Positions 1 to 41,620 of a stretch of 64,000 bases of DNA are shown piece after piece. Source of the DNA: Gordius albopunctatus (taxonomy: Eukaryota); contig OZ193909.1 of the NCBI GenBank assembly GCA_964276515.1, positions 20,708,001 through 20,772,000 of the forward strand. The letters run 5' to 3'. Below the pieces are notes generated by a model. It ran no database searches. It had not been told where the DNA came from and saw only the letters and a program-made list of their open reading frames with translations. Position numbers and translations under genes: made by a program. How positions within the stretch are numbered: the stretch's first letter is position 1; each line of letters opens with the position of its first letter.

Positions 1-1599
1 AGTCAGTAGACTTGTATTTAATCCATAGAAGAAGTTTATGGCATCTTGACTTATACTGACATGGTCACACCTCGCTAATTGGGCCACCACTGCTCCGCGC
101 ATACCTAGTGTGGGTAGACTGAGCATTTTGGTAATCCTGGGCCAGAATCGTCCCTCAACTGAGTCATGCATGGGTTGGGCTATGAACCACATAGCCTGTT
201 GCATCCCGTGCATGAAATCTTCGTACACGCGGTGATTTATTGTAAGCTTCTCGATCACCGAGATAATTAATTGCTGCGTTACATTGACCTCAAACTGATC
301 CGGGATTATGGGACAATTGACAGCCCCTATAATGTCGGTCGTTCGCTTACCGTTTGGTATTGGTTCAATAAGTACAATATCCTGGTCTATAAAGAATGGT
401 GTTGACCTTGTATTGCCTTTAAGTGCATAAGCAAGCACAGCTACTTGTTGATGGCTGAACCCCCTTAAGTTGACGTAGTATTTGTAGTCAACAAGGGTCT
501 TGTAGGCTGTCTCGTCCTGAGGCCAAATTGTTTTGATTGGGCCGAAAAGTGACGTCGACGGGTCATAAGTGTATTTGAATCGGTTAGCATCAATCGGGAA
601 GTAACCGTTTGTGAATCCATAATCGATACCCCCTGCTGTCCGATCAATTACTGTATGGCAGTCTTCATATATAGGGTATGCCCAACACGATGTGTGTAGT
701 GTGAGGGGCAGGAGCATCGGTGATGCGATTAGGTTATGGTATGTCGGATCAACTGGTAATCCGTCAGCTAGTCGGCCTGTGTCGAAGTACTCACGTTCAA
801 TAGCTGTAGGCATGTACCGATATGGTAGGCCATCTGCTGCCGGTTGTTCTTCTGGTTTTAGTGCGCGCTCGTGAGCTCGCACTCTGTTCAGGTAACCATC
901 AAGGTGGTTCTTGATTGTAGCTGCGTGTTGGTTCCAAATCGAGTGGGTAGCTGGGATGGGTCCAAACTGCAGAACTATGATTGGTGTGAGTTCTGTCACA
1001 ATAAGCGAGTTTTGGAGGTGGAGACAGGTGTTGAGAAACGGGATACTCAACTGGGTTTCGACATTATGCCTAGAGTTTTTTGAAAACATGTCTAGCAGGT
1101 AAACCTGTTGTATTAACATGGTGAATAGTGCAGAGTAGTTTTCATATGCGTCACGCATAAATGTGTCGTTGAAAAATTTATCAAGATACGGATCTCGATG
1201 ATAGTATTCTGTGGTTATGGCACGCAACAACCCGAAATTGGAGTTGGTACTGAGATTGGCCTTCCAGATGCATGGTGGGCCATAGATGTTAACGTTTGTA
1301 ACTGTCATGACTGGGATTCGCTCTTCTAGCCTTCTGTTGAGTACGTCGTTATACTCAGATTTGACTTCATACCTCCCGCCTTTTTTAGCGAGGTCAAGAT
1401 TTCCAACTTTCTCCAAGTCTCCAGACCGATCCGCTTTATAACATAGACCGAACGTTGCCTGTCCCTTAGCTACTCCGCAGGCCTGTAAGTCAAGGTCTAC
1501 CCTGATAAGGGCCGACCCATCAACAAAGAAGTTTGGTCTGACATTGTGAGGCACAAAACCTTTAACGTTGAAAGGATCAAATATATAGGGGTTTGACAT
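1..1599 (-). CDS. Totivirus-like capsid protein, endogenous copy A (3' end runs off the window)
   Basis: ATG at 1599-1597. I read all 533 codons to position 1 and found no stop. Translation MSNPYIFDPFNVKGFVPHNVRPNFFVDGSALIRVDLDLQ... is colinear with 37496-40180 (position 1 = 38531), with a net 51-nt in-frame length difference. Absent from the ORF track because it has no stop within the window. Confidence 0.85.
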   Translation of the reverse strand, partial: MSNPYIFDPFNVKGFVPHNVRPNFFVDGSALIRVDLDLQACGVAKGQATFGLCYKADRSGDLEKVGNLDLAKKGGRYEVKSEYNDVLNRRLEERIPVMTVTNVNIYGPPCIWKANLSTNSNFGLLRAITTEYYHRDPYLDKFFNDTFMRDAYENYSALFTMLIQQVYLLDMFSKNSRHNVETQLSIPFLNTCLHLQNSLIVTELTPIIVLQFGPIPATHSIWNQHAATIKNHLDGYLNRVRAHERALKPEEQPAADGLPYRYMPTAIEREYFDTGRLADGLPVDPTYHNLIASPMLLPLTLHTSCWAYPIYEDCHTVIDRTAGGIDYGFTNGYFPIDANRFKYTYDPSTSLFGPIKTIWPQDETAYKTLVDYKYYVNLRGFSHQQVAVLAYALKGNTRSTPFFIDQDIVLIEPIPNGKRTTDIIGAVNCPIIPDQFEVNVTQQLIISVIEKLTINHRVYEDFMHGMQQAMWFIAQPMHDSVEGRFWPRITKMLSLPTLGMRGAVVAQLARCDHVSISQDAINFFYGLNTSLLT

Positions 1600-2910
1600 G
1601 GTAGGAGTAAATTGAGAAGTCGAATAATTATCTGGCAAGTTGGGGAGGAGCAAATATTTTCCCAACCTTCTCGTCAACACGTTGAGTTATCGACGCTAGT
1701 TTTGGAAAACTTTTTTTCTTATGTTTCCGCGATAACCGCGTTTTTGATACGACTATACATACTCTGTTAATGCGGATGCGTCGTACGCATTCCGATGCGT
1801 TTATCTTCTTTGGTTTGTCCCCCTAAAAAATATTTTTTTAACAAGTTTGTTTATTTATTTGTAGAAATAAACACTATAAATAAAAACAGACATAGAATAA
1901 AAAGAATAATATATTATGTATACATAAATATTTATCCGAGTTTGAAGGCTGGTCAGAGATCACCCAGGGATTTGAAATTCTATTTAGCAATATTAGGATG
2001 CAAATTTTTTATTAAAGAGCTCATATTGTTTTGACATAGAAATAAGAAAGAAACCATAGACTAGTTATACACCAGACTGGGGAACCACTGATATATGGGT
2101 GTATCCAGCATTGGAATTAGAGGGGAGGGCAATAATGATTTAGGAAAGGGCTAATTGATAGTTTCTCAAAATTTAAGCCATAATTTTAATAACTTTCAAA
2201 GAATATTTGAGTTAGAGGGGGGCAACCACCCCTCTTAATTATAAGCAAGAATTAAATTTTATATTTTTATACCTCACCAATAATAATCATGAATTTGCAT
2301 AAGTAATCTTAAAAGTAGGATTCAAAATTATATTATGTGTCTAATAGAAATTTATATTTATAAACCCATAGGCAACATACACTTAAAAAATGAGATTGAG
2401 TGAATAATACTTACCAAAGAGTTTGATTGTAGCAATATTTTTTATCAAAAACATCTTTCATTGCCTATAATTTATCACATTTTAAGGAATTTACAAGATT
2501 AGGTAAAGGTTGATTTTCATTTGTATTCATATCTTTAGTTTCTGTTGTCAATTTTGTCATTTCTTCATAATGAGATCTATAACGTGCAAAGAGGCAGTTG
2601 ATTATTAAAAAAAATATTTTTTAAATTACAATTTTATTATTTAAGTAATATAAAGTATTAGGTAATACATAAAATGGCATAATATTAAGTGATTCAGTAT
2701 AACCTACATTATTAGAGCTAAGGGATAATAATTTTAATATTTTTGTTAAATAAAATAATATAGATACTTTTGTTTCTTTGGAAGTATGAATATCGCCAGA
2801 TATATATAAATGAGTAGATGCCATGTCATATGGATATTATAATAAATTACAATATGATTTGATCCATCAAAACGATAAATTTTTATATTTCACAGAGGAA
2901 GTACATTTTT
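1600..2910 (-). pseudogene. Degenerate 5' exons of PLEKHM1-like paralog A, directly upstream of the capsid
   Basis: 1612-1830 matches parent 26300-26520; 2400-2600 matches parts of 27530-27860; 2621-2824 (MASTHLYISGDIHTSKETKVSILFYLTKILK) matches 28743-28937. Most of the RUN exon is deleted; frameshifts and stops are present. Confidence 0.85.
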
Positions 2911-3246
2911 ATGATGCCCTATCAACTCGCCGAAAGCAATCTTACCGAATTCATCCTGGTACATTAATGATTTTCTCCGCATTATCATAAAGAAGGCCCT
3001 AATTGAGTAACTTTTATAATAATTATCATATTTAATATAAAAAATACCTAAATTATAATTTTAATGCGAAATTGGATAATTAATATGGCTTTTGGGGGGG
3101 GGGGAGACATTTTCTAATTGTGGCGCATTTTTTAACATTGGGACATTCAATTCGGCAAGTTGACGGGTCATCCATTTTTATCACCCGAAAATTGAACAAG
3201 ACAACTATATCTCAGACCAGATCCATCATTAGAAGTTTAAGAAAAT

Positions 3247-12610: not shown

Positions 12611-12720
12611 TTCCTACTTGATTATAAATGATCATTAATTACTTGCTTATATTATTAAGTTAATGATAATTTGAAGTCTATATTACATTGCTTTTAAACT
12701 CTATTAAAAAGTAGATTCCT

Positions 12721-13159
12721 CTTCTTCTTTATCGTGTTGAAAATCCCACAGACTGGGGTACGTTTTCAGCAGCCTCTTCCAACTGAGTCGCGTAAATGCC
12801 ATGCCAATTTCCATCTGTTTGACGTCCATATCCTTTTCGACCAGTCGTTTCCAGGTGGCACGTAGTCTGCCCCTTCCTCTTCTTCCAGGCACTTCCATCT
12901 CCAGCGTTCGCCGTGTGACATAGTCTTCGTCTCTTCATAATACATGGCCGTACCACCGCGGTCGATTTTCTCTTAAGAAGTCCTTCGTCGCTTGTATACC
13001 CATCTTTGTCATCAAGGATTCGTTCGTCATGCTATCCAGCTTGGTATAGCCTAAGCTCCATCGCACCATTCTCATTTCCGCTTTTTTTTACAGCCAGCTT
13101 CCGACCAGACGTCAACCCTCAACTTTTTTCACACGGACTTGGGACCGTCGTTGGTAGTG
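12721..13159 (-). mobile_element. Short bipartite RTE derivative (5' UTR fused to 3' end)
   Basis: 13081-13150 resembles the RTE 5' end at 10920-10988; 12721-13080 encodes the RTE C-terminus and GAA tail. About 17-bp TSD ttaaaaag(t/a)agattcct; empty site at about 42650-42665. Confidence 0.75.
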
Positions 13160-13579
13160 TTAAAAAGAAGATTCCTATGGGATATTAATAATTGCTAAGT
13201 ATGTCATGACGTTAAATATCTGTTGATTTATTTAAAGCTATTTTTACAAAACATATTGCTGCAAAGGTTTAACTGTTTTAAAAGGTAAAGATTTTTATGT
13301 GATTTGAATAATCACTAATCAAGTATGCTTTTATGTCAAATATTCCTTTATTTATAAGATTTATATACTTAATTCTATAATAAAATAAAATCTGCTCCCT
13401 ATAATTCCAAAAATTGTCAAAATTTATTAAAATTATGGCTAAAATTTGAAATAATGATTATTTTGCCCCCCCCCCTAAATTATTCTTGCCCCCCCCCCTC
13501 TAATTCCAAGACGCCCATGAATAAAAGAAATTGCAAAAAAAGGCAATTACACTTAAAGTTCAAAATCCTATCAGATGTG

Positions 13580-14300
13580 GTTAATTTCATGGAAGGAATA
13601 TGCAATAATCAAGTGATTAGTGCTCTAGCAAAAGAATATTTTCACCACTGCCTTCTACTGCGACCTACGAAAGGATTTCATTGCAGTTCGAAGCGCATAA
13701 CATATCCCAGGCAGTTCCAGTGGCAGGTGCGCAGAAAAAATGAAGGGTTATAGGTTGTTTATCGATTGAAGTATTCCAAGTGGTGGCAGGGATGTCGTAT
13801 CAGTCAACCCAACAAATGGGCGTTCGAGGAATTAACAAACAGGTTGCGTAAGTTATTCAAAACAAATAATTATCGCCTGGCGCAAAGATTCATTCTTGGG
13901 GATATTCGCCATATAGGGGAACGCCGAAATACTATTCGTGCGCAGACTCAAAACCGCAGCAAAGAACAGCAACTTCAGAACTGATGAGTTCCAACACACT
14001 TATGGATCAGTTTATTCTGGGACTGCAGAAAAGACAGGGAAATGGCTGAATGACCTTGAATATGACAGGATCTTCGAGATAGTATGAAAACGGAGGCGAT
14101 CGATGAAGGGTTAAAAAGGTTGCATGTTACAGCCGAGGAGGCATTTGCAATGGATACGTAAATAGTCGGCCATAACTTGATCCGGTTCATCCATACTTTA
14201 TTTATATCGACTTATATATTAATGCTAATTTGGTTCAATTTTAATCGGACACGGCATCTGTCATAAAGATCGTGCCGATCCTCCTCTGGAGGGAACCCCT
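13580..14300 (+). pseudogene. Old hAT-transposase and LTR-gag remnants (duplicated at about 43280-44320)
   Basis: Fragmentary HLAAYLLNSRF / PPSTAAYER hAT-like motifs (clearer in the 43280-43750 copy) and RRLKTAAKNNNF gag-like residues; many stops. Confidence 0.4.
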
Positions 14301-14969
14301 ACCAACCGTGGCAGACCTCACCCCGACCGTCTATGGGTATGGAAACATAAAGATAGTTGCCGAGATTCGCCTAGGGCAGAAAAAGTCCCGCTTTATACAC
14401 TTGGATTAAAGTTATATCTAGCATCAGTAAGTGAAATCTATCCGGAATCTGCATATCAAGTTATTTTTAGTTTTAAAAAGGTTGGATGCCACAAATTTTT
14501 AGATATTAAATAAATTTTTATATAATAAAATCATAATATATAAATTTTTGGGATGTTTAAACTCTTTCATATCGCATTTACATCACCCTCATTGTTTACT
14601 AGTATAATGGGTCTTATTAGCTCCACATGATATAAACAATTTATCTGTTTGTGGCAAAAATTAAATTTGTCAATTAAAGGTATCGCCAGAAATTATTTTG
14701 TATTGGCAAGCACACCTAAATTAAATTATGTGTCCGCTTCAATAAAAGTGATTGCAAAGCAGTGGAATTATATAAATTATTCAAACTTTTAGGAATGGTA
14801 AACCATTCGAGATTTTAATCATTTGAGAGGAATAAATGCAAAAGACACCTTAAAACTTTATAAATTGATTTAATTTTTCATCTGGAGGTAAGTCAAAAAG
14901 TATTTGCGAAAAAGATGAAAATTTTTCAGGATCGTTGATACAAATAAAAATAAATTCTATTACTAAAAA

Positions 14970-16418
14970 TAGTGCTATAAACATTTGTAAAAAAATCGAA
15001 CGGGTTCGCGTTCAACGTTCATTGACAAAAATCGAACGCGTTCATGTTTGTTTTAAAAAAAAGGAACGCGTTCACGTGTTCACGTTCGTTCAAAATTTTA
15101 TGATAAATTTTTTTAAAATTTAATTTAATATAAATAAATGTCTTATATTTTTTAATACAATAAATAGCCATAAAAAATAATAGTTTTACTTCGAAAATAT
15201 AATTATAAATCAATATAATCCATTTTCTTATTGATTTTTAATAATAATTGTTTTCAAAATGGTGGTCTGATAAGCAGGAACGCTTGGCAGTTAATACAGC
15301 ATTAGTTATACTAAAAACCCGCTCCACAGGGGCAGGTGAGGGGATTGGAGTATTATACTTCTTCTTCTTCTTTATCAGTTATTTGGTCCCACATTGGTGG
15401 GGTTTGTTTTGATGAGTCTCTTCCATCTTGACCGGGTGAGTGCCATGTCTTGACGAATCTCTTTAGTTTCCATAACTTTATCGACTTGCCTTTTCCACGT
15501 GACACGGGGTCGTCCTCTTCCTCTCTTTCCCGGTATTTTCATGTCTAGCACTTTTCGATTTACGTCATCCGGGTCCCTTCTTAGTATATGCCCATACCAC
15601 CTTAGCCGATTTTGTTAATCATGTCCGCCATAGGTTGAATACCCATTTTTGTCATGAGAAAGTCATTCGTCATATGGTCGAGCTTAGTATACCCCAAGCT
15701 CCACCGTATCATTCTCATCTCCGTGGCTTGTAATAGCTTTCCTTCCGTGGTGTTTAATGCCCATGTTTCACTTCCATAGAGTAACACCACGATGGATTTG
15801 TAAGCTTTGCTCTTCAACCATATTGGCATTTTCTTGTCGCACATTACACCGGATATACTTCGCCATTTAACCCATCCTTTTTGAATCCGGGCATTGATTT
15901 CAGTTGCGCAACCTCCCTCTTGATGTAGCATAGAGCCGAGATAAGTAAACCTGTCTACATTAAGTATAATACTGCAAAATATGGAATATTATACTTAATA
16001 AACAAATTTTTTAAAAGAGGAAATTTATTAAAAGCATTTAATGTTTTGTCCATGGCTTCAAAAAATTGCGACAAAATATCATCCTCCAATCCGCCCTCTA
16101 TTTCCTCGTCAAAAAATGATATCTCGGAATCGACAGCTCTTTCATTATCAATTCTAGTGGTTTCAATCCCTTTTTTCAATAACATTATGGAAACAGGAAA
16201 AACACCTGATTAAAAAATATAAGACTTTTTTGTTGAAAATTTGGATTAACATTAATTTCCAAATAAATAAAAAAGGGTTTTTAAAATTAAACGAACGTTA
16301 AATTCGAACGCGTTCATCAAAAAAAAGAACGCGTTCACGTTCAAAGTTCACCAAAAAATAAAAGAACGCCGTTCATGAACGCGTTCATAAAAATTGAACG
16401 CGTTCATTTACAGCACTA
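14970..16418. mobile_element. Non-autonomous hAT element containing a 5'-truncated RTE (15359-15955, minus)
   Basis: TIR tagtgct(a/g)taaa; TSD actaaaaa/attaaaaa; AACGCGTT subterminal repeats; empty site at about 57775. The nested RTE 3' end is nearly identical to 3250-3857. Confidence 0.8.
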
Positions 16419-17576
16419 ATTAAAAATAATCTCCTTTAAGTCTGTGAAATTAAAAAAAAGCTCTTGCTTATTTTAAACCATAATTTGCTGCCTTATTTCT
16501 ATAGTGGCGAAATATGAATAAAGTATTATGAATATAGTGCTTTATATAAATCGTCAAATAAATTACTTGAGTATCATCTTATTTAGTTACTCGGGAAAAA
16601 TTATAACTAGTAGTCGAAGTTCTTAACGTGAAAGTAACTGTTATAGTTGTTAAATTGCTAAGTAGCTTCAACTAAAAACGCGAGCACGAACACTAGCTGT
16701 GTAATATGCTAGTTTCGGTACAATAGTTTTAACAGTAGCATGTAAAAATGCTCGAGAGCTTAGTCGAAGCAGCCCAATCTGTTAAAAAAATTAGCAGAAG
16801 CTCGAGCAGTAAATTCGAGCAGAGATAGTAGATTGATTGAATTGCTATTTGTTAAAATTTAGTTACTTACAATATTTGCTCATATTATATATCATAAATA
16901 AATTAAGAACTTTGCCCCCCCCCTCCCCCCTGGTGAAACAATTCAATCTAGAGGTCTGCAACGGGCCGTTTTTAGATGCTCGGCCCGCCCGTACCCGTTT
17001 TCAAAACTTTAAGGCCCGTCCTAGCCCGCCCGTAATTTTATTTCACAACTTCAGGCCCGTCCGTAAATTTTGTAGTCCCGTCCCTAGGTTTTTCAGGCCC
17101 CTTTAGAAAAACGTCAGGCTCGCTCAAATTTGTTTAAAACTCCGCGCCCGGCCCAATTCATCAAAAATTTCGCATAATTTTATTTTTTGACATATTTATA
17201 AAAAAAGCATCAATAATTATCATGTAAAAATGATAAATCATCAATTATTTCAGCAGTTAGTTAATACACATAAAAAATTTTACTATAGGACTACTATTAC
17301 ATTACTCTAACAAATTACATAAGAATATTCCACTTTTAATACTTCACTTTTATTTGATCAATTTAAGTTAATAGACCTAAGAAGTTTTCATTATTACCAT
17401 AAAATTAAAATACTTTAATAAAATCACATGAGAATATTCAGCTTTCAATAAGCAGCCAGGATTTTCTCAAGGGGGGGGGGGGAAATTTAAAAAAAAAATT
17501 TATAGCATTTTTATTTCAACAACAAAAATTTGAATTCACAAAATATAAAATTTGCATATAAAATAAAAAAGAGTTA

Positions 17577-19563
17577 TTATAAAATAATTTTATATTTTAT
17601 TTTCCCCATTAAAAAAATATTAAGAACTACATCGGGAGTAAAAGCTAACTCCCGATGAATTGTCAATAAAGCCAATCCATTTAATCTATTCTTAGACATG
17701 GTATTTCTAATGTAAGTTTTTAGCCTCCTCAGCGTTGAGAAGCTTCGTTCATTAGTACACGTTGTGATTGGAAGGCAAGCTAATAGATATAGAAGAGTCG
17801 TTATATTTGGTAGGGATCTTAATATATTATGTTCGGATAAGGCGTTTAAATGATTCTTTGGACGAGATCCTTCTGAGATCTTAGATAAGAAGGTCATATA
17901 CCAGATATTGAATTCTGCTATGAGATCTTCATTAGTCCCTTGGAGGTCATTTGCATAAAACTCCGATAGAAAATTTATTTTTAATCGAGTTACTGGTGAA
18001 ACAATAAAGGAATTTTGGGGAAATAAAATTTGGAAATTTTCCAAAACTTGTTTCTTGTCCAGAAACCGTTCATTTAATTATGTAATAAAAATATCAAGTA
18101 ATGGTATAAATATAGTAATTTTGTAGTATTCTTGAATGGATTCAGTATTAATGTTACTTCTACAAGTTTGTTTTTTTTGCAAACCGAGGTTTTTTGAGCT
18201 CGAAATCATACAACTTGGCCTTGTCTTCAGCGACTAAAAAAACTTGTTGAAACTCTTCATCAACGTTGTTTCTGTTTGATCTACTAAAGTCTCCGCCAAC
18301 TGTGTAACTTGTTGAAGATGCAAGTCATTTTTTTGCAATTGCTTGGATAAAATAGATGTGTAGCCAAATAGTTTATTCATGCATAAAAGGGAAATTAAAT
18401 ATTCTGACTGCCGTAGAGAAGTGAGCAACGTTGCAGCTTCTGTTGCAACAGCGTGGTCATAACAGGTTGAAATTTTTTCCAATGGCGGATATATGGCATC
18501 TTGAAGTAAAATATGGGTGGAAACGGCATCGTGCCGTGATGCCCAGCGGGTCGCACACACTTGCTTTAATTTTTCTATAGGAGGTTTGTCTTCCAATTTT
18601 GACAACATTTCAATAAGAACCTGACGACGTTTCGGATATTTAAAAACATCGTAAACTTTAGAAACAATCCCTATTAAAAAAAATTATATTTTAAATATAA
18701 TCTATATATTACCCATGCAATTCCGTATAGTGGGAATGGTGCAGGCATCTGATAGAGCTAAATTTAACGAATGTGATGCACAATGAACATACCGTTAAAC
18801 TTCCCGCTCATATTCCGGGCCCCATCATAGCCCTGGCCTCTTAACAAATTTATATTAATATTTAGATCCTTTATGTTTTTGATAATTATATGTCCTAGCT
18901 CCTTTCCTGTTGTGTCAATATCTGGGACAAATTGCAAAAAAATTTATTTTATGGCTAACGTTGAAGTATCAATCGTGAAAAGGGGAGATTTGTTAATTTC
19001 ATTGGCTAATTTATTGAGGATTAATTCATTACAAATGGTTATAACCTCATTTTGAAAATGAGGACTTAGGTAAAGGGCATTTTTCAAAAAGTCTGAAAGT
19101 ACTGGCTCCCCATTAGTCCGGTATCTTAAGAGGGCTCTAAAATTACCGGAATTATTATCTTGTACATCAGATTTAATAGGTCCAGAATCTTTATGGCCTC
19201 TTAAGGCCAATCCTTGAATCCCCAATGTCAAAATAGTATCAATGATGGGAGCTATCTACAAAGCTTTTTCCCATCTCTAATTGATTTTAGAGATATGGCT
19301 GTCTGTATTGAGTCTATGTGATATAAATATTTTTGGTGTAAATTAAAAATTTCTGTAGCATCTTTCCATCTTCTGAATGGTTCAGAAACTAGCCCCTTCA
19401 ACTTATGTTGCCCCTTTCCACCAAATTTTGGGCCAAAAAGTACGCATGTTTTACAGAACACCCCATTTTCCTTTGGCGAATAGACAAGCCAGCTCCATTT
19501 CTGGAACCAGGAGTGTTGAAATTTTAATTTTTTTAGTGTGGTATCATGAGGAAAATTGAACAA
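17577..19563 (-). mobile_element. Frameshifted hAT transposase (TTF zinc finger / DUF4371, ZMYM1-like type)
   Basis: FQHSWFQKWSWLVYS..VFCKTC, GLALRGH, NSGNFRALL, CATRWASRH and LPITTCTNERSFSTLRRLKTY spread over several ORFs. Confidence 0.85.
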
Positions 19564-21830: not shown

Positions 21831-23533
21831 AACAAATTATAGATTAAACGAATCGGGGTCAAAGTGGCAGAATGATGAAAAAGTAGCAGAAGAAGTCGGG
21901 GTGAGGGAAAATGCGAAGCGCGCAGACATTTTAGAATTATACGAAAAAACGACATACATTAAATTGTGATTTTCATGTATTATCTGGGAGAATTTGTCTC
22001 ATTTTTGAGCAAGGATAGAAGAGGTATACAAAATATAGATTTTAAAGCATGTTTAATTAGAATTTAAAAAATCTTCAAGAAGTGGGCAGGTACTGACCCT
22101 TGGTCAATATTCTTACATCAAAGCTAATATGGGTAAAAATCATCAGACCTATTGGAGATGCATAAAAAGGAAATGTGGGGGGAAAGGAATCCTTAAGCAT
22201 TAAAAATTTGAAATAACTAAGGATCATACATGTAGTACAACAATTCCATCCACAAGTAAGCTTGCAAGTTATTAGTCATTATATACATCCTACAGGTAGT
22301 TCAAACATTACAAATGAATTCTTGGAACCTCCTTTAAATCATGACCTACCAAATCTTGACATGCAACTCAGTATTTTTTGCAACAAATGATAAAAAGCCC
22401 GTCCGTACCCCGGGCCTGCCCGTGCAGATCTCTAATTCAATCTATTACTATCTGCTCGAGCTTCTGCTAAATTTTTTAACAGATTGGGCTGCTTCGACTA
22501 ACCCTCGAGGATTTTTACATGCTACTGTTAAAACTATTGCACCGAACAGCTAGCACTCATTGTGCTAAACTAGCATATTACACAGCTAGTGTTCATGCTC
22601 GAGCATAGCATATAGTTAGCATTGTTAAAGTTAGCAATTAGCAACTCTAGTAACTGTATATTAACAAGTTCCTTTAGATAAGGATGGTATTTGTATGCTA
22701 CTTCTAGTTTCATTTGAATTAATTCACGTCACGCTACTACTTTTCAAGTCTAATTTATTTTTTAGAAAATCTTGGGGGATCTCTTTGAGATTAAACGTTT
22801 TAGAAGTGGCAGAAGGAGCACCATCTGAGTGTACTCTAGCAAAGATCGCAAAGACTTAAGAGATACACACTTCACTTTTCGATTTTTATATATGTAAAAC
22901 TATTATTTTTCCCTCTGTCTCGATATATATATATATTTAGTCTATTCGCGTTTCGATTAATACACCCAAAGCTAAACGCCAAAGGCCGCCCAAAAAATTC
23001 ACATAAAACGCGTTGGGTGGTTTTTGACAAAAAAGCCAAACTCTAAAGCCCCCACCCCAAGAAATTTCACCTAACACACTATAAAAGGCTGGGTGCAAAT
23101 AAACGCTAACGCCTGCAGGCGACCAACAGAAAACCTTGGTTTTTTACAAAACTACCATATAGTATATAGGTGAAGACAAAATGTGGAGGCAATAAGACTT
23201 GGTTGGCTAAAAGTTCTTAATTCTTTTCAAAGCTATAAAGAAACTGAAAAACCAACTCGTATACACAATGTAATGTGCTAAGTATACAAAAGCTACCCAC
23301 CGTTAAAAATGATCTAATCAATGTGAACCTAAATGCTGAAAAAAGTGTAACTATATATAAACTTATTGTATTTATTAAAACTTACTAAACATTAAAAAAA
23401 ACATCTCAAGATTTGTTTACAAACTTTGTCACATGCCAAATTTACACAAAATGTTTCTAAATAATATTTTGCTGCTAGAAATTAAATTTTATTATCAATA
23501 GAATATTGCGCATAGATCGGAGATACAAAATCG

Positions 23534-26500
23534 CTAGGTAGCGTCTATAAAAAAGTTTGAAGCTGATTCTTTGTTTGCCTCGCTTAAACATCGTCTACAA
23601 ACGGGATTCATAACATATTGGAGCCAAGGGGAGAGTAGGTGTGGGAGCGAGGAGGGAGAGCCAATAGAGGGTAGGGTGTGTGAAGTTAGGACATGACATC
23701 CCCGGCACAGCAGTCTTTTAGAGGAGCAGTTGGGACAACAATGAACGTGAGATTCAATGGATTGCAATGATTCCTTTAAACTTTGGACGTAGCTGTTCGG
23801 TGTCCCAACTAAGTCACCGACGGAATACAGCTCTTCTGGCAACACCTCTGCCCTTTCTTCGCCTAATGGTGTACATGTTATGAACAAGACAGATCACAAA
23901 TTGCATAGCAAATTAATAAATTAAAGTGCTTAGTTAGGTGGTGAGAACGAAGGTTAAAAACAAATTCGATAATAGATGATGTATCCATGGGCGTAGGCAG
24001 ATTGAGGGGGGGGGCAATTAAGATTGGGTAGGGGCGAAATGATAATTTTTAGTTATTTTAATTTCTTGATTTAAAGACCCTACCTCCCCCGGCTAGGCCC
24101 ATGGATGTCTCCATCACGATAGTGCGAAAGGTGTTGGCTGCCGTTTGAGGCATAACATACTGAACGCTATTTGATTTTTTTAATTTATAATTTAATTTAA
24201 AAAATCAATATTAAGCTAATTACACATAACAAAAGTCCATTAGAAAAAAAAATATATACTGAAAATTATAAAACATTTGCTTATTTGCTAAAGGCGACAT
24301 TAGCGCCACCTATAATAATTTTTTTAAACTATAGGTGTGATAGGAGTCCTCTTTTAGTCTACTATATTATTAGTCTATGTCCTTAACTTACCGCGGCGGG
24401 GCTGATTAAGGTAGGTGAGTATGGCGGTTACGAAATCCCCATTTCCCCGTCTATTTTTGAGAAATTTTTGGGCGACCCTCAAAGAACAAGATGACAAGTA
24501 GAGGTTGTACAACGTGTACAGGGCGCTTTTCATGATCCTTATGGAGTCGAGACCGGGAATGCTATGGTATAGGGGACAATCCCCCCTTCCTAATCTTATT
24601 AGAGGATCATTTCGACAAGTGTCCAACAACACCTTATCGCGATGGCATACCTGTCCGGGATCACACAAAATAGAGTAATCATCATCATGCATATCCAGTT
24701 AAGGATAAATTATGGGAAAGATCAGTAAAATTAAGAAGGCAACTTTACGTGGCGATTCACGATTATGCATTAAGATTATGAGAAGTTATATAAATTTAAA
24801 GTTTAGGGGCATCATTATAATTCTTTGCGAGGTAATTTTATAGCTTACTTTGTACAGTTTGAAATCCCAATTGAGCAAGAGTCTGGCGGGAATGATTGAG
24901 CTTTCCTTGAGGTGGCAATAGGTGCAATAGTAGAGGCCATCGTAATGGCATACCCTGTACTCCCTCCCGAACCCTGGCATTACGCAATTGTTGCAAAGTG
25001 TAAATTAATAATATTAATAGAAAAGTTGGCAAGACAATTTCCTTAAACCCAAACTAACATTTCGAAACCTACTACGTCTATAGCCTTGATTCCATTTCAA
25101 ATTATAGAGAGGTAGAGGCATGGGCGTGGCATTGGGATTAGAGGGGGGGGGGCAATAATGATTTAGGGAGGGGAAAAATGATTATTTATTTGAAATTTTA
25201 GCCCTATTTCAATAAATTTCAACTTTAATTCGATATAAATATACCGATTGATCGAGAACAGAGTGGGCCGGCGCAGGTATTATTTTGCAGGTCGAGTCCC
25301 TTCTCATTCTGCATGGCGTCGTGCAAGCACAAAAATTTCTTCAATCCTCGTTCAGAGATATCACCTCGTTCCAGGATGGTTGGATGATTGCTTAGCAATA
25401 TTCTGTAATCTACGGCGCGCACACACACACACACACACAAACAAACAAATGAATGAATGAGTATACATCATGTATTAATTGCTATTGAAGTGTCCTCCTG
25501 TCCACTTTGATTTCATAGAAATCGTTGGAAAAATATGATTAAAGAGTGTGACATGCAAATATGGCTTACACAAAGGAAGGAGGCTTTGATATTCTCCAAG
25601 GTACAAGAGGGGCATATCAGCTTCTTTAGGAGGAAGCAACTCGTCCACTGAAGTAGCTTCCGACACTTTCAACTTTTCAAATTCCTCTCTACCCATCTCA
25701 GCCATCTCCTTAATAATGATCATTATCATCGAGGACTAAGAATCGAGTAAAATTAAAAATACACAAAAATGGTATTAAGTAAAATGAAAAGGGAAGGGAC
25801 AGGACCATCCCCATTCTTCTCATCACATCGCATCGCATTAACTAGTGTTGTAAAAAGAGGGGTGGGTTTTGTTGGGGGGGGGGGGGCTTAAACAAAAACA
25901 CAGATCATACGTTTTTTGCCCGTTTCTCGTAGTCGACATTTAGGCCAAGTCGAAATTTGGAAAAGAGACGAGAAGATTTTGGTGTATTTTTCAAAATAAA
26001 GCCAGGACTTTTTACAACACTTGGCACTACTACGACTCAAACTTAATTGAATACAAATCTAATATAAAGCGGTGTTGGAGGAATTGGTGAAGAATTTACA
26101 CCAAGTTGCGGAGTTGTAGCCGGGATTCGAGGCTGTTGTAATATGGATGGAGAGCTCAAGCATGCTTCAACACTACCACGCACCTCCTCGTTTTCCGTCA
26201 ATAAATGCTCATTTGTGAGTTCTTCCCTTTCCCCCTTTATCATAACTTGTTCCGGGGCAGCATGAGGAGGGTTGGGAGTCCCGCTAGATGATACGAGGGA
26301 TTGCGAAGTCGAATAATCATCTGGCGAATTGGGGAGGGGCAAATATTTTGCCCACCTTCGTGTCAACTCGTCCAAAGTTGAGGTATCGACGCTAGTTTTG
26401 GAAAACTTATTTTCCAATATTTCCGCGATAACCGGGTTTTTGATACGACCAAACCTACTCTTTGACTGCGACTGCGTTGTGTGCACTGCGGAGCGTTTAT

Positions 26501-28937
26501 CTTCTTTACTTTGCCCACCTACAAATATATGTTTTGTTTAACGAGTTTGTTTATTTATTTATAAACAGACACAGAATAAAAAAAACAAAAAATAATATTG
26601 TATAAAAATTATAGCTCGTCGAAGGCATCACGGGTATCATCCTCAAAGAGCGACCAACGATCGGGCCGGCAGGGATTTGAAATTGTAAATAGCGATTAGG
26701 ATGCCCATTTTTTGTTAGAGAGCATGATTTTGTTTGACATAGAAAGCATAGACTAATAATAATACACCTGAGTGTACTTTATTAAGTAAGGGCTGTAGGC
26801 CAGGGCGTAGCTAGGGGGGAGGCCGCTCTAAATCCATAAACTCTTTGCGATTTATTAAAATTAGGCTAGAATTTCGAAAAATGATGATCATTTAGCGCCT
26901 CCTCATATCATTATTGCTCCCCCTCTAATTCCAATGCTAGCTACGCCCACGGACCTCCTTGTATGTTAGAGACGTATTTTGTTCGTCGATTTAATTAATT
27001 GCTGCTCAAGACTTTTTATGTCACAAAATCGAATAAGGGAGGGCATACAGTAAATTGCGTAACAAAGTTAGAATAGACAATTTGAAGATGAGGGTTCAAA
27101 CTAGAGCTCTGCAAGGGTGACCCGACCCGACCGGTTGAAAATTTCTAAATGCCTCCGGGTCGTGTCGGGTTGAAAACTTTTAACTTTTGGATTGGATCGG
27201 ATCGGGTTAAAAACGCATTAGTGTCGAATTTGGGTTGAGAAAATTTAAACGCTTCCGGGCCGGGTTCCGGTTAAAAAGGTGACTTTGCAGGGGTCTAGTT
27301 CAAACCCCCATCTCATCCAAACTACTACTAATTTAAATGTAACATAGACATGAAGTTTAAAAAAAACAATTTGAATCACAATCTATTTATAACTTTTTAT
27401 AACTAAATAATAACAATTGATTACGACTCTGCATAATGAATGTTAAAAGTAGGAATCAAAATTAAATTATGATATGTTTAGTAACAATTTAAATTAATTA
27501 GGCAACATTCAGTTTAAAAATGAGATCACGTAATTAATAATACTTACCAATAATGGTATTTAAATCTTGTACCCCAAATATGTCACAGTTGAGATGAGGA
27601 TTTGTGTCAGGAGTTAATATTATATTATTTTCATCTAACTCTTCTCCTATAGGAATGTATTCATCAAGGGTTTGATCGTAACAGTATTTATGGCTTGTAA
27701 CATCTTTCATTGCATAAGCTTTATTGCATTTTAAGGAATTTAGAAGGTTAGGTAAGGGTTGATGTTCATCTGTATTAACATCTGTAAAATTTGGTGTTAA
27801 TTTTGTTCTCTCTTCATAATAGGGTCTATAGCCTGCCACTATTAAAGAGGCAGTTGATAATTTACATTGCATTGTGTTATATTCTTTAGAAAATGCTTTA
27901 GCAGGATAGTATATAATGGGTGAAAGCACATCTGTTTTAGGAAAACTTGTCAAAGATGTTCTTTTTGATGTATTAGTTATATGAAATAGAGGGAGATTTA
28001 TTAAAAGCTTGATTAGTTGTGTCATTAAAGACATATCTCTTATATAGGCATGTGGCAGATATAGATGATTTAATTGGCATTTTAAATTATAAACTTTATT
28101 AATATCTTTTAAGTCAATACATGTATCAATCAAGTTCTTTATGTATAAATTATTATCATTTGTTTCATTTTGTATTAGTGAAATAATTTTGTCTGACTTA
28201 TCAATAACTTCATTTTTGTCAAACTTGAACTCATTAATTATAAAAGTGATATAGAGCAGTAGAAAGTTTTTTAACAGAATACCCTTGTTTATACAGTATC
28301 TAATCCAAGCTTTACCCAATGTGTGGGGACTTAGAACATCTTCAAACATGTTGATTTTTTCATTGACATTCATATATGCACTGAATTTTGCTATGTGTTC
28401 TAAAATTTTATAATTATTTGTTATAATTGCAAAATTAAATAGTTCATTATTTAATGTTTCACAAAAATCTTTCCCATGATTTGATAAATGTGCATTATCA
28501 TTTAGGAGCACCATATGTTTTGCTAAAGTCCAAAATTGTATATCACATATATTTGCATGATTATTCTTTTCTTGATCCTCCATAGAAATTGAATTATTTC
28601 CTGATATAAGGTCTCCGTCTTCGGTTTTCACTAGGGAAGCATTAATGTCAAAATCAATGCTAGTTTTATTCAATCCATGGAAAAATACTGCTTCTAACCC
28701 AATACACAGCTAAGATAAAAATATATTTTAAGTCCAATCTTATTATATAAAAAATCTTACCGAGTTAAGTAATTCACAAAATGGCATAATATCAAGAGAT
28801 TCAGTTTCCTTGTATCCTTCATTATTAGAGCTAAGGAATAATAATTTTAATATTTTTGTTAAATAAAATAATATAGATTCTTTCGTTTCTTTGGAAGAAT
28901 GAATAGGATCCGATATGTAAAAATGAGTAGTTGCCAT
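23534..28937 (-). CDS. PLEKHM1: PLEKHM1/Rubicon-family protein (N-terminal RUN domain, C-terminal Rubicon-homology zinc domain), multi-exon
   Basis: Phase-consistent GT-AG exons: 28937-28761, 28709-27548, 26518-about 26056, about 25708(or 25735)-25570, 25409-25245, 24973-24849, 24650-24392, 23862-23534. RUN motifs LCIGLEAVFFHGL and GKAWIRYCIN. RH motifs EKGLDLQNNTCAG..CSRSIG, CHYDGLYYCTYCH..IPARLLLNWDF, LYSVGDL, HVHCCPNC. Orthology to PLEKHM1 rather than RUBCN/DEF8 rests on the EKGLD motif plus RUN and is untested. Confidence 0.8.
23986..24103. mobile_element. Small hAT-type MITE (catgggcgtag family; relatives near 2095, 13500, 25119, 26800, 40677, 42550)
   Basis: catgggcgtag...ctaggcccatg with TSD gatgtatc/gatgtctc; intronic. 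Confidence 0.7.
27102..27297. mobile_element. hAT-type MITE in intron 2
   Basis: tagagctctgcaa...ttgcaggggtcta with perfect 8-bp TSD gttcaaac. Confidence 0.8.
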
Positions 28938-35689: not shown

Positions 35690-36225
35690 TACAACACTAC
35701 ATAAAATAGCTGTCGGCATTCTATTTAATATTAATATGCGTGCCTAACTTTTTTTTAAATTATAATATTGTTTATTTGAAGGTAAGAACATTATAAAAAC
35801 GAAGTGTTAAAATTCGAGAAATACAAGAGCGGGTATAAAACAAAATAAAAAAAAATATAATTAAAAAGCATCGCATGTGTCATCTAATATAAGTGGCCAG
35901 ATGTCGGTCAAGGATTTAAAATTATACTCTGCGATAAAGATACCATTTTTTGTTTAAGTAAAAAATTTGTGGAACATTTAGAGGGCGGACAGCGACGGCT
36001 GATATCTTTAAAAAGCTTGATGGCGTCAGGACCAAAAGTCCTAGAACACGAGGCAAAGATATTAGAGGGTAGGGGGGCCTTGTATTTTACCGTTTTGCTG
36101 TGTTCGGCGAGGGTCATAGCATTGTAGTTCTGGTTAGAGAGGGCGAAAATGTCTATGCAGGTAAAATCCCATTTAAGGGGTAGACCATTTTGCCAAGGGA
36201 TGAGAGTCGGGGTTGATTATTTCCT
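35690..36225 (-). mobile_element. 5'-truncated CRE-clade retrotransposon 3' end
   Basis: Encodes PWQNGLPLKWDFTCIDIFA...FASCSRTFG, homologous to 50190-50250 and 56378-56600. Confidence 0.7.
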
Positions 36226-36822
36226 GTCTATTTTTAAGAAATTTTGGAGCGATCCTTAGGGAACACGATGACAAGTAGAGGTTGTAGAACGAGTACAAGG
36301 CGTTTTTCATGATTCTTATAGAGTCGAGACCGGGAATATTATTGTATAGGGGACAATCCGCATTCCGTAATCTAATTAAAGCATCATTTCGACACATGTC
36401 CAACAATACCTTATCGCGATGGTATACCTATCTATACCAGGTCACACAAAATAGGGTAATCATACTTGATTATTCCACACGGTTTTCTAGTTTAGAATAA
36501 ATTTAAAGAAAGACTACTAAATGTAATAACGCACAATTTATATGGTAATAAGCCGTAAATTAAAAATATTACGCATTAAAATTACGAGAAGTTATAGCAA
36601 TATAAAGTTCAGGGCGGTCATTATTACTTTGTAGAGTTTGAAATCCCAATTGGGCAAATGTCTGGCGGGAATAATTTAGCTTTCGGTGAGGTGGCAATAG
36701 TAGAGACCATCGTAATGGCATACCCTGTATTCTGTTCCGAACCCTGGCAGGCGTCATCAAACTATATGTAATAAGCAATTGTTGAAAATGAAATTAATAA
36801 ATAGAAATGTTGGCTAAGACGA
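36226..36822 (-). pseudogene. Degenerate RH-domain exons of PLEKHM1-like paralog B, downstream of the viral insert
   Basis: DMCRNDALIRLRNADCPLYNNIPGLDSIRIMKNALYSFYNLYLSSCSLR matches 24450-24650; 36620-36745 matches 24849-24973 with a frameshifting deletion. Confidence 0.88.
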
Positions 36823-36833
36823 AAGGAACTTAC

Positions 36834-37655
36834 GTTTGGAGATGCAAGATTAATCAAGACCTATAATGTTCCGGTTTCTGGCATTACCACTGACGCTAGA
36901 TTGCGTGATGTGTTCATGTTGGAACCGGATGTTATGAAGACCATTACAATCTTGTTCTGAAAAACGCAAGTGTCCTAAGTCCACAAGCGATAAAACCCAT
37001 CCACACCTGTTTTTGTACCAATCTAGCCCATGTCTAAGTTCATGTATTGACATGTGTCGTAGATATGCTGCTGACGTAGGTAAATACTTGGCTTCAAAAT
37101 TCCCCTTGAACCACTACTCAGTGACCTTGGGTATCGAGTGGTTGACCCAATTAACCACTTTACAATGGTACACATGGTCTAATATTTTTCGGTCGTCTGA
37201 AGCGTTGAAGGGAAATAGGTCGTAACCAAAAAGTGATCGTGAGAAAGGAGCGTTTAGTAATCAGCGCTTGTCGGTGTCCGATGTCACATAGTAGGCAGTC
37301 ATGTTAAGGTGACGAAGGTACACCGCATAAGCCGTCATGACCCATCTCTGATTACATATTCCTACCGCCCTGCATGTATTCTACGGTGTCTGACATCAAA
37401 CAATATATTATCGCACGTAGTAAAATCAGCTATGTTATACACCCCTGAAGCCGCGTCTGCATGTCGTAAGTAGCCTGGTATATTGGATAATTCCTCTATT
37501 GCCCTGGCGCGGGAGTTGTGTTCACTACCTCGGACACTGTGAGACCGTCTATCACTAGAGGGGAGGTTATATCGTTCAGGATTGTGAGTGACTTCAATTG
37601 GTCGACAAAGTCGGTCCCTGGTAATTGTGCCCGATCCCAGTCTACGTGAAAATCC
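36834..37655 (-). pseudogene. Truncated, disrupted N-terminal region of the totivirus-like polymerase ORF
   Basis: The -1 frame is open from the slippery site for about 96 codons to a TAG near 37361. After a frameshift it reads AVYLRHLNMTAYYV...SRSLFGYDLFPF...SAAYLRHMSIHELRHG with TGA (about 37261) and TAG (about 37115). No catalytic RdRp motifs remain, so the assignment rests on position and recalled N-terminal similarity. Confidence 0.6.
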
Positions 37656-40180
37656 TCACTTTGTAAGTCGTATGTCGCCCTAATGTAGGCTGTATACTGA
37701 GCTGTTCCTGTGTCAGCTACAGTAGCATTGAGCGTAAATGTGGACCACTTACTGCTTGTTGGTATGATGTTATTTTTATTGTTGTTACCCCTCAATAAGT
37801 ATACGCCGTTGCGATGCCAGCAATACCACAAATCCACGTTTTCTGCTAGTTGGGGTTCAGTCCTGAAGCAGTGTTCCCGTGCTTGTTGGCCTATGAGAAC
37901 GTAGGATAACATCTCGACGTTGTCAGTATATGCTGGAGGGTGTGCAATCTCAGTATTGTTTGGTGCCCACATCGTGAGCGATGTATTGTTACCTGGTGCG
38001 TAATAGCTTATGTCGAAGCCTTGCCATCGCCTGACCACACCGTGCGCCCACAAGTCGTAGTAATCAATACCAATGCATAGTCTACTTTTGTACGGCTTCG
38101 TCGCAAGCGCTCCGCGAATAAAGACGGTGTACAGTGGGGTCCCTTTGAGTAGACTACCTCCAAGCCCGGCAATCATGGGGGTGCCACTCGGGTGAGGAAG
38201 CTTCTTAAAAACGAGGGTTCTGGTACAGGAGTTATATTCATACCCGTACGATGTGAAGTCGGCACTAGTCGAAGTTAGTTGTAGCCCATCGTTAATCACA
38301 TTGTCGAGGCCATTCTCTATCATGGGGTCAGGGCACCGGAAGATGCTAGTCCTGGCTGTCCTACCAGTGACAGCAGTGATAAGGGCTGTGGCACGATGCG
38401 GGGTCTGAATTCGTGGAATAATATCAAGTCCCTCTTGTAACAGTAGGTGTGCGGAGCTCTTCCTATTTATCATGTGAATATATTCTCCGTGACACCATGC
38501 TGCGTTTATAAAGTTTGACACAGTGTACTGAGCCAGTAGACTTGTATTTAATCCATAGAAGAAGTTTATGGAATCTTGCGTTATACCGACATAGTCATCA
38601 CTCACTAATAGGGCGACTACTGCTCTGCGCATACCTAGTGTGGGTAGACTGAGCATTTTGGTAATCCTGGGCCAGAATCGTCCCTCAACTGAGTCATGCA
38701 TGGGTTGGGCTATGAACCACATAGCCTGTTGCATCCCGTGCATGAAATCTTCGTACACGCGGTGATTTATTGTAAGCTTCTCGATCACCGAGATAATTAA
38801 TTGTTGCGTTACATTGACCTCAAACTGATCCGGGATTATGGGACAATTGACAGCCCCTATAATGTCGGTCGTTCGCTTACCGTTTGGTATTGGTTCAATA
38901 AGTACAATATCCTGGTCTATAAAGAATGGTGTTGACCTTTTATTGCCCTCAAGTGCATAAGCAAGCACAGCTACTTCTTGATGGCTGAACCTGCTTAAGT
39001 TGACGTAGTATTTGTAGTGAACCAGGGCTTTGTAGGCTGTCTCGTCCTTGAGCCAAATTGTTTTGATTGGGCCGAAAAGTGACATCGATGGGTCATAAGT
39101 GTACTTGAATCGGTTAGCATCAATCGGGAAGTAACCGTTTGTGAATCCATAATCGGTACCCCCTGCTGTCCGATCAATTACTGTATGGCAGTCTTCATAT
39201 ATAGGGTATGCCCAACACGATGTATGTAGTGTGAGGGGCAGCAGCATCGGTGATGTGATTAGGTTATGGTATGTCGGATCAACTGGTAATCCGTCAGCTA
39301 GTCGGCCTGTGTCGAAGTACTCACGTTCAATAGCTGTAGGCATGTACCGATATGGTAGGCCATCTGCTGCCGGTTGTTCTTCTGGTTTTAGTGAGCGCTC
39401 GTGAGCTCGCACTCTGTTCAGGTAACCATCAAGGTGGTTCTTGATTGTAGCTGCGTGTTGGTTCCAAATCGAGTGGGTAGCTGGGATGGGTCCAAACTGC
39501 AGAACTATGATTGGTGTGAGTTCTGTCACAATAAGCGAGTTTTGGAGGTGGAGACAGGTGTTGAGAAACGGGATACTCAACTGGGTTTCGACATTATGCC
39601 TGGAGTTTTTAGAAAACATGTCTAGCAGGTAAACCTGTTGTATTAACACGGTGAACAGTGCAGAGTAGTTTTCATATGCGTCACGCATAATTGTGTAGTA
39701 TATTTTATCAAGGTGCTCCCAATGATATTCTTCCGGAGTTATGGCACGCAACTCCTTGATATGCTCCACTGAATTGATAGACCCGGCTGAAGTGATTAGT
39801 CGAGCGTTGAGCCCGAAAATGGAGTTGTATCTGTGATTGGTCTTCCAGATGCATGGCGGGCCATAGATATTAACGTCTGTAACTGTCATGACTGGGATTT
39901 GCTTTTCTAGCCTTCTGTTGAGTATGTCGTTATACTCAGATTTGACTTCATACCTCCCGCCTTTGTTAGCGAGGTCAAGATTTCCAACTTTCTCCAAGTC
40001 TCCAGACCGATCAGCTTTATAACATAGGCCGAGCTCTACCTTTCTCTTAGCTACTCCGCAGGGCTGTAAGTCAAGGTCTACCCTGATAAGAGCCGACCCA
40101 TCAACAAACAAGTTTGGTCTGACGTCGTGAGGCACAAAACCTTTAACGTTGAAAGGATCAAATATATAGGCGTTTGACAT
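37496..40180 (-). CDS. Totivirus-like capsid protein, endogenous copy B (894 aa, intact, intronless)
   Basis: GC-richer intronless ORF with NSIFGLN..IT..G.I, MRDAYENYSAL, DRTAGGTDYGF, EVAVLAYALEGNKRSTPFFIDQD and C-terminal EDF at a GGAUUUU site; capsid-then-pol layout of Ghabrivirales/totiviruses. Confidence 0.82.
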   Translation of the reverse strand: MSNAYIFDPFNVKGFVPHDVRPNLFVDGSALIRVDLDLQPCGVAKRKVELGLCYKADRSGDLEKVGNLDLANKGGRYEVKSEYNDILNRRLEKQIPVMTVTDVNIYGPPCIWKTNHRYNSIFGLNARLITSAGSINSVEHIKELRAITPEEYHWEHLDKIYYTIMRDAYENYSALFTVLIQQVYLLDMFSKNSRHNVETQLSIPFLNTCLHLQNSLIVTELTPIIVLQFGPIPATHSIWNQHAATIKNHLDGYLNRVRAHERSLKPEEQPAADGLPYRYMPTAIEREYFDTGRLADGLPVDPTYHNLITSPMLLPLTLHTSCWAYPIYEDCHTVIDRTAGGTDYGFTNGYFPIDANRFKYTYDPSMSLFGPIKTIWLKDETAYKALVHYKYYVNLSRFSHQEVAVLAYALEGNKRSTPFFIDQDIVLIEPIPNGKRTTDIIGAVNCPIIPDQFEVNVTQQLIISVIEKLTINHRVYEDFMHGMQQAMWFIAQPMHDSVEGRFWPRITKMLSLPTLGMRRAVVALLVSDDYVGITQDSINFFYGLNTSLLAQYTVSNFINAAWCHGEYIHMINRKSSAHLLLQEGLDIIPRIQTPHRATALITAVTGRTARTSIFRCPDPMIENGLDNVINDGLQLTSTSADFTSYGYEYNSCTRTLVFKKLPHPSGTPMIAGLGGSLLKGTPLYTVFIRGALATKPYKSRLCIGIDYYDLWAHGVVRRWQGFDISYYAPGNNTSLTMWAPNNTEIAHPPAYTDNVEMLSYVLIGQQAREHCFRTEPQLAENVDLWYCWHRNGVYLLRGNNNKNNIIPTSSKWSTFTLNATVADTGTAQYTAYIRATYDLQSEDFHVDWDRAQLPGTDFVDQLKSLTILNDITSPLVIDGLTVSEVVNTTPAPGQ
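37649..37655 (-). promoter_or_regulatory. -1 ribosomal frameshift slippery heptamer G GAU UUU
   Basis: Correct phase in the capsid frame (GAG GAT TTT), 50 codons before the stop; the -1 frame continues open past the capsid stop. Confidence 0.7.
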
Positions 40181-41620
40181 GATAGGAGTAAATTGCGAAG
40201 TCGAATAATTATCTGGCGAGTTGGGGGGGGGGGAGAAAATATTTTCCCAACCTTCTCGTCAACACGTTGAGTTATCGACGCTAGTTTTGGAAAACTTTTT
40301 TTCTAATGTTTCCGCGATAACCGCGTTTTTGATACGACCATACATACTCTGTGAATGCGGATGCGTCGTACGCATTGCGATGCGTTTATCTTCTTTGGTT
40401 TGTCCCCCTAAAAAATATTTTTTTAACAAGTTTGTTTATTTATTTGTAGAAATAAACACTATAAATAAAAACAGACATAGAATAAAAAGAATATATTATG
40501 TATACATAAATATTTATCCGAGTTTGAAGGCTGGTCAGAGATCACCCAGGGATTTGAAATTCTATTTAGCGATATTAGGATGCAAATTTTTTATTAAAGA
40601 GCTCATATTGTTTTGACATAGAAATAAGAAAGAAACCATAGACTAGTTATACACCAGACTGGGGAACCACTGATATATGGGTGTAGCCAGCATTGGAATT
40701 AGAGGGGAGGACAATAATGATTTAGGAAAGGGCTAATTGATAGTTTCTCAAAATTTAAGCCATAATTTTAATAACTTTCAAAGAATATTTGGGTTAACCA
40801 CCTCTTTTAATTATAAGCAAGAAGTAAATTTTATATTTTTATACCTCAACAATAATAATCATGAATTTGCATAAGTAATCTTAAAAGTAGGATTCAAAAT
40901 TATATTATGATGTATTTAATAGAAATTTATATTTATAAATCCATAGGCAACATATACCTAAAAAAACATATTGAGTGACTAATAATACTTACCATTAATG
41001 GTGGTTAAATCTTGTGCTCCAAATATGTCAGTTGAGATGAGAATTTGTATCAGGACTTCTCCTATAGAAATGTATCCATCAAGGGTTTGATTGTAACAAT
41101 ATTTATGGCTTGTATTATCAAAAATATATTTCATTGCATATAATTTATTACATTTTAAGGAATTTACAAGATTAGGTAAAGGTTGATTTACCTTTGTATT
41201 GATATCTCTAGTTTCGGTTGTCAATTTTGTCATTTCTTCATAATAAGGTCTATAACGTGGAAAGAGGCAGTTGATTATTTACTTGTAATCCAATACACAA
41301 CTAGAATAAAAATATATTTAAGGTACAATTTTATTATTGAAGCAATATAAAGTAAATCTTACTGAGTTAAGTAATACAGAAAATGCCATAATATTAATTG
41401 ATTCAGTATATCCTACATTATTAGAGCTAAGGGATAATAATTTTAATATTTTTGTTAAATAAAATAATATAGATACTTTTGTTTCTTTAGAAGTACGAAT
41501 AGAGCCAGTATAAATGAATAGATGCCATGTCACATGGCCATCATAAATTACAATATGATTCCATCAATCAAAACGATAAATGGCCTAATGTTTTTTTATT
41601 TCACAGAGGAAGTACATTTT
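40181..41620 (-). pseudogene. Degenerate 5' exons of PLEKHM1-like paralog B, splice signals retained
   Basis: Homologous to parent exons 1-3. GTAAG donors at about 41362 and 40992; AG acceptors at about 41301 and 40408; about 850 nt of the RUN exon deleted. Confidence 0.85.

Follow-up and report, generated by a model that had tools for sequence, protein, structure and literature searches.

Fv1, Arc and PEG10 are familiar cases of capsid co-option. Among totivirus capsids, the system closest to the locus described here is the STORM TLC1-4 array of the yeast Scheffersomyces (bioRxiv 10.64898/2026.05.24.726934; PMC13756089). Debaryomyces hansenii cp1, a stand-alone nuclear totivirus capsid gene, cures L-A, forms no particles and serves as a model for negative complementation (PMC6166632). 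A planthopper study reports 5686 toti-like endogenous viral elements (ToEVEs) in arthropods and toti-like co-option in animals (PMC10636211); integration alone is therefore common. Here, we analysed a 64-kb stretch of DNA (hereafter the window) that holds two copies of an L-A-type totivirus capsid (Gag) open reading frame (ORF), each lying within a decayed duplicate of a neighbouring host gene. This locus may best be explained as a domesticated, relaxed decoy capsid like those of yeast cp1 and STORM, in a probably animal genome; we put the probability of this reading at roughly 0.42.

Like the STORM array, the locus has duplicated L-A-type capsid ORFs that stay open next to pseudogenised neighbours; the two also share a long branch, relaxed selection, a retained fold and a partly retained decapping loop. 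STORM differs in having a yeast host, demonstrated expression and one copy that is a full Gag-Pol, whereas here the host is likely an animal, the pol is dead and expression is putative; the STORM sections consulted describe no origin in a host-gene duplicate. The capsid gene of cp1, like the one in the window, stands alone in nuclear DNA, but cp1 has been tested and is 42% identical to the virus that it cures, whereas the window protein is at most ~26% identical overall to any sampled virus (PMC6166632). With the planthopper ToEVEs, including NlToEVE14, the locus shares toti-like sequence in an animal genome within a host exon-intron structure. Those elements have their matches among toti-like viruses of arthropods, and NlToEVE14 plays a part in development (PMC10636211), whereas the Gag in the window is full-length, with rust, mildew and leaf-associated totiviruses as its named relatives.

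An initial annotation of the window had proposed two same-strand totivirus-like capsid ORFs and suggested checking them against totivirus capsids and the L-A Gag fold. We found both ORFs, on the minus strand:

37496..40180, minus strand: copy 2 of the totivirus Gag (capsid) ORF, with its ATG at 40180, its stop at 37496, 894 amino acids and zero internal stops
1..1599, minus strand: copy 1 of the Gag ORF, with its ATG at 1599 and 533 open codons to the window edge

The 3' third of copy 1 and its pol lie outside the window. The two capsid copies are ~95% identical, and copy 1 carries a 57-nucleotide (nt) in-frame deletion relative to copy 2 (19 amino acids), in the stretch that aligns to L-A residues 46-141. 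A protein search gave two matches to the 894-residue ORF among 7993 scored candidates, the better being the capsid of a leaf-associated totivirus (E 2.5e-75, 27% identity over 95% of the length). The ORF also matched 55 representative relatives, 37 of them at E<=1e-30; of the ten that we looked up, six were named rust, mildew or leaf-associated viruses and four were unnamed JGI proteins. For alignment we combined the ORF with 40 relatives, namely both best-search matches and 38 of the 55, leaving out fragments and weak matches.

The ORF profile matched L-A Gag (1m1c) with an E of 6.9e-35. A direct Pfam scan did not detect PF09220 in the ORF, although both best-search totivirus matches do carry it. 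The predicted model, built on the viral alignment, had a predicted local distance difference test score (pLDDT) of 77 and a predicted template-modelling score (pTM) of 0.82. It retrieved 1m1c in a structure search (E 1.7e-22) and superposed on 1m1c (VIA) with a Z of 24.6 and a root-mean-square deviation of 3.5 over 610 aligned residues. Thus, the 894-residue ORF is an L-A-type totivirus Gag by sequence homology and fold. Like the S. cerevisiae virus L-A, the locus has a gag-pol overlap with a -1 heptamer, and the protein has residues that match the cap pocket; unlike L-A Gag, it is DNA-encoded and without a working Pol, shows only ~12-13% structural identity and carries an extra insertion of ~120 residues before the decapping loop.

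In a quick tree of the 41 rows, the window protein had the longest end branch (2.31) and joined another long branch. This branch length and the identity of at most 26% to any row indicate that the totivirus donor belonged to an unsampled lineage; we name no donor because the tree was quick and the window row pairs with another long branch. The proportion of G and C at third codon positions was 0.49 in the capsid and 0.22 in host exon 2. A metagenome scan with the protein P0003 gave no match.

We then compared the surroundings of both copies with the intact host gene that lies between them:

23534..28937, minus strand: intact parent gene with RUN and Rubicon-homology (RH) domains, PLEKHM1/Rubicon-like, at least 8 exons
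40181..41545, minus strand: decayed exons 1-3 of a host-gene duplicate, upstream of copy 2; exon 2 has lost its RUN-coding part and the frame of exon 3 ends ahead of the Gag ATG
1600..2841, minus strand: decayed exons 1-3 of a host-gene duplicate, upstream of copy 1; the sites of intron 1 are deleted and those of intron 2 kept
36220..36820, minus strand: host sequence resuming downstream of copy 2, with the end of intron 5, RH exon 6 (broken) and RH exon 7 (open)

Both capsids come after the counterpart of parent intron 2/exon 3, and host similarity ends at the same point in each, no more than a few bases from the Gag ATG. The exon-3 frame closes before the capsid, so no host-Gag fusion protein is encoded. 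At copy 2, where host exons flank the capsid, the parent segment ~26290-25040 is missing (a search for 26290-25260 at copy 2 scored 28, against a shuffled maximum of 34), and the RH exons return after the pol remnant at ~36820; the virus therefore replaced ~1.25 kb of the duplicate. The initial annotation was right that the copies share one insertion point in exon 3, which we place at the Gag ATG, although the event at copy 2 is a replacement rather than a clean insertion. Since both copies share the same junction, a single integration followed by duplication, as had been proposed, accounts for them. The duplication is not recent, because the distal flanks of the copies show 12.6% divergence and, over 780 nt, 14 indels. 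We rejected an assembly artefact, as the junction is present twice with independent mutations. Integration in host DNA is supported by the host exons on both sides and by this repeated junction; read runs marked 'DNA?' also contain the sequence, and none of the listed runs was marked as RNA, which has no bearing on expression.

The exon-3 remnant at 40192-40409 has 21 differences to the parent exon of a second organism (organism B, below) and 31 to that of run X1, which hints that the duplication predates the A/B split. At 51536..53360 on the plus strand lies an inverted, 97.6% identical copy of 37010-35186 (pol tail, RH exons and flank, no capsid), inside a gypsy element between its protease and reverse transcriptase (RT) parts, with long-terminal-repeat-like repeats at 50255-50493 and 56135-56373. 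This fragment resembles a templated insertion from 15 kb away.

Downstream of the copy-2 capsid, the viral pol is broken:

36820..37655, minus strand: viral Pol remnant, the first ~240 of ~860 residues, with at least one frameshift (37392-37323) and two in-frame stops, the remainder being absent
37649..37655, minus strand: GGATTTT, a -1 frameshift heptamer close to the 3' end of Gag; the viral contigs L001 and L002 have one near their Gag end too

A tblastn search with the L001 Pol gave a weak colinear alignment to 37673-36979 (two high-scoring segment pairs, two frames, two stops, sum E 6.9e-5), and Pfam gave no match for the longest piece of pol that is still open. GGATTTT is a known totivirus slippery site (PMC8973213). 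The overlapping -1 pol frame with its slippery heptamer is thus present, but as a broken remnant, in which read runs X1 and X2 both show a fixed 1-nt deletion. The initial annotation had described host exons and pol as broken and both capsids as open. This holds, except that RH exon 7 of the copy-2 duplicate (36220-36430) is still open and ~75% identical to the parent; the adjacent exon is broken.

The pol remnant served as a control of the same age for the capsid frame. We counted at least three breaks in ~190-205 pol-only codons and none in 894 capsid codons, so the disruption rate of the capsid lies below that of the flanking pol (conditional P 0.005-0.006 for k=3). If a stop in an unaligned gap is counted, the pol breaks number four and the conditional P is about 0.001. 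Capsid indels measured 3, 3 and 57 nt between the copies, and run X1 added others of 3, 15 and net 126 nt. All 6 of the 6 capsid indels seen (from the reads, among 12 of 35 and 12 of 43 indel rows) were in frame, whereas the flanks kept the frame in 8 of 19 cases; (8/19)^6 is 0.006. We observed no stops among the 81 inter-copy substitutions (neutral simulation P 0.05-0.07) or among 121 pooled substitutions (P 0.013-0.02), the read substitutions being the best 40 of 234 and 40 of 340, picked by support. Of 71 virus-conserved columns, 58 were kept, and the pooled changes weakly avoided such columns (P 0.01). Positive selection was considered and rejected: unconverted tracts would account just as well for the clusters of changes at residues 46-50, 114-164, 377-414 and 519-545, and omega does not exceed 1.

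Read runs from another study, under the label of organism B, contained a 93-94% identical capsid copy over 38206-39354. Its depth was close to that of a single host exon (394-399 versus 381 in run X5; 158 versus 206 in run X4); the small-share runs X3 and X6 were left out of this close-copy evidence, and capsid parts without cover in organism B runs were not read as absence. A second, more diverged capsid stretch appeared in X3 and X4 on 38043-38767, in contigs of 1534 and 1614 nt that kept the same length over 660 nt; it may be another endogenous viral element or an older paralogue. Between run X1 and organism B run X4, 25 of 40 listed differences were common, in a listing biased toward shared rows. 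An estimate of ~8 capsid copies from summed depths was dropped: in X1 the depth was 712 at the parent exon and 1458 at the capsid core, or roughly two copies, depth being no true copy number. The X4 contig at 38206-39312 has one end that resembles what we take to be an Illumina adapter, so this boundary is technical.

Several observations weigh against a protein kept by selection and used as a decoy. The inter-copy ratio of non-synonymous to synonymous substitution rates (dN/dS) was 0.69, with a bootstrap confidence interval of 0.45-1.10 and a Fisher P of 0.15, and non-synonymous codons made up 31 of the 37 classified read variants, at or above the neutral share. Inter-copy changes did not avoid virus-conserved columns (P 0.33), and 13 of the 71 such columns were lost. 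Frameshift alleles may be hidden beyond the indels listed, and the locus was chosen because it is open. The proximal flank has diverged less than the ORF (3.1% versus 5.1%), which suggests homogenisation by conversion, so the copies are not independent witnesses. The close capsid copy was not seen in the small-share run X3, nor the gag-host junction in the organism B runs. No viral row is more than 26% identical to the window protein (the nearest row, 26%), and no cognate virus is known. Upstream, the exon-3 remnant holds three ATGs in copy 2 and two in copy 1, and we found no similarity to the parent beyond ~20 nt before the parent ATG (scores 25 and 23 versus shuffled maxima of 34 and 33).

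That last result also bears on the proposal that the integration captured the host's transcription and splicing scaffold. Host promoter capture is unsupported, and the sequence that the copies share further upstream is a high-depth repeat. The splicing part fared better in that each copy still has the donor and acceptor of intron 2; no other splice sites are kept in both, as the intron-1 donor and acceptor are lost in copy 1, where an 86-nt deletion ends just before the intron-2 donor. Splicing through intron 2 is possible, judging from these sites. Taken together, the evidence is good for an open frame and weak for constraint on the sequence; we consider maintenance at the protein level probable. 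That selection kept the frame open is an inference, as is patchy gene conversion between the copies. The proposal that the locus is maintained for its protein gains from a frame that outlasted pol and host exons; the dN/dS interval, which includes 1, does not establish purifying selection on amino acids.

We also compared the cap-binding pocket of the window protein with that of L-A:

39185..39199, minus strand: YEDCH, homologue of the decapping loop YHDGH/YDDGH (L-A Tyr150, Asp152, His154), with Gly changed to Cys; the same in copy 1

The decapping residue of L-A is His154 (PMC6164181), and the loop reads YHDGH, YDDGH or YNDGH, with the pocket completed by Tyr452 and Tyr/Phe538 (PMC13756089). 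The window protein keeps Y328, D330, H332, Y647 and W738 at the positions so described. H332 was placed by motif, as the printed 1m1c alignment skips L-A 142-199. All 40 of the 40 viral rows have Gly in the loop, where the window protein has Cys.

The parent gene comprises seven exons at 28937-24392 with GT-AG borders, which join into 787 codons without a stop, and an additional RH exon at 23893-23534, so that an intact parent indeed lies between the two capsid copies. It carries a RUN domain (PF02759, E 6.4e-5) and an RH domain on three exons (PF13901, E 7.8e-14, 5.1e-5 and 1.4e-6). Its earlier description as PLEKHM1-like agrees with these two domains, but no PH domain, part of the PLEKHM1 layout, was found in the exons, each scanned separately; the gene may be closer to PLEKHM1 or to Rubicon. 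Homologue searches with the RUN exon and the RH exons, both weak and restricted to longer proteins, gave no match, and the Atlas yielded nothing beyond ankyrin-like leads of low recognition. Elsewhere in the window, a leucine-rich-repeat gene starts at 63409-64000 (PF13855, E 7.7e-12), and nested, fragmented transposon copies (RTE, gypsy, hAT-like, CRE-like RT) occupy 12615-23044, 42560-47026 and 56737-60958. A tandem array lies at 20794-21690, and the 200 N bases of the window include one run at ~42097-42200. The RUN and RH gene, the leucine-rich-repeat gene and the transposon set indicate that the host is probably an animal.

In the explanation that we prefer, an L-A-type totivirus complementary DNA (cDNA) took the place of the central part of a duplicated host RUN/RH gene, and the virus-bearing unit was then duplicated. 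The capsid frame stayed open as pol and host exons broke, and the host would likely express a stand-alone capsid protein, with transcription either passing through intron 2, which is retained, or beginning at a new start. This protein would co-assemble with related totivirus capsids and abort them. Such a decoy, proposed by analogy with D. hansenii cp1, fits because the protein keeps its fold and length yet drifts from viral norms, as in yeast cp1 and STORM TLC. A neutral endogenous viral relic, its capsid unused and its frame open by chance and gene conversion, would explain a dN/dS not different from 1, many radical replacements, the loss of 13 conserved columns, upstream ORFs without promoter homology, and an open frame in a locus ascertained for openness. 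We take this alternative seriously but think it unlikely, since a pol of the same age acquired its breaks within about a quarter of the capsid length (P<=0.006), all six capsid indels seen kept the frame, no stop was observed, and related stretches occur under a second organism label.

Other uses of the locus seem less probable. Domestication not as a shell decoy but for cap-binding or decapping chemistry on capped RNA, in host mRNA turnover or on viral RNA, would explain the five residues at L-A pocket positions and the YEDCH kept in both copies, and STORM TLC4 offers a precedent. We hold it improbable, given the Cys in place of an invariant loop Gly, the placement of H332 by motif, and an overall column retention of 82%, at which keeping five of five residues is unremarkable (0.82^5 = 0.37). 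Self-assembling particles that package host RNA or their own, as in Arc/PEG10-like co-option, would agree with the full-length fold (pTM 0.82) and with a low-confidence C-terminal tail that tolerates variation such as the 126-nt in-frame loss. However, the 19 residues missing from copy 1 in the L-A-aligned stretch argue against an ordinary RNA-packaging particle and fit a decoy better; conserved shell residues are lost, and yeast cp1 and cp2 form no particles (PMC6166632), so we give this use little chance. An antiviral source of small RNAs (PIWI-interacting RNAs [piRNAs] or small interfering RNAs), with the open frame incidental, appears just as doubtful: most planthopper toti-like elements yield piRNAs (PMC10636211) and the region is transposon-rich, but such a source predicts neither in-frame-only indels nor the contrast with pol.

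We found no literature that names totivirus and PLEKHM1 together, and no paper was tied to the locus by its title or the start of its abstract; subscription papers and supplements, such as the ToEVE lists of PMC10636211, may include it. The locus stands apart from the known systems by carrying a fungal-type Gag of full length in a probably animal genome, by having arisen within a duplicated host gene, at the point where Gag starts, and by variants that run X1 has in common with organism B. A bolder version, speculative and on balance unlikely, is that an animal lineage took over an L-A Gag of fungal type, which now exists in several copies, evolves fast and acts as an antiviral or cap-binding protein. 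Such a protein would have been born when viral cDNA displaced the core of an endolysosomal gene duplicate, precisely at the start codon of Gag, and its variants would be shared across a species boundary, as in a long arms race with an unknown totivirus.

The dead pol beside an open capsid of the same age offers a clean natural control, and the locus is a base-level record of the way in which a new gene may originate within a host-duplicate scaffold. If a full-length L-A-type Gag is kept open in a probably animal genome, capsid-based defence would extend outside fungi, and an unsampled totivirus lineage would be implied.

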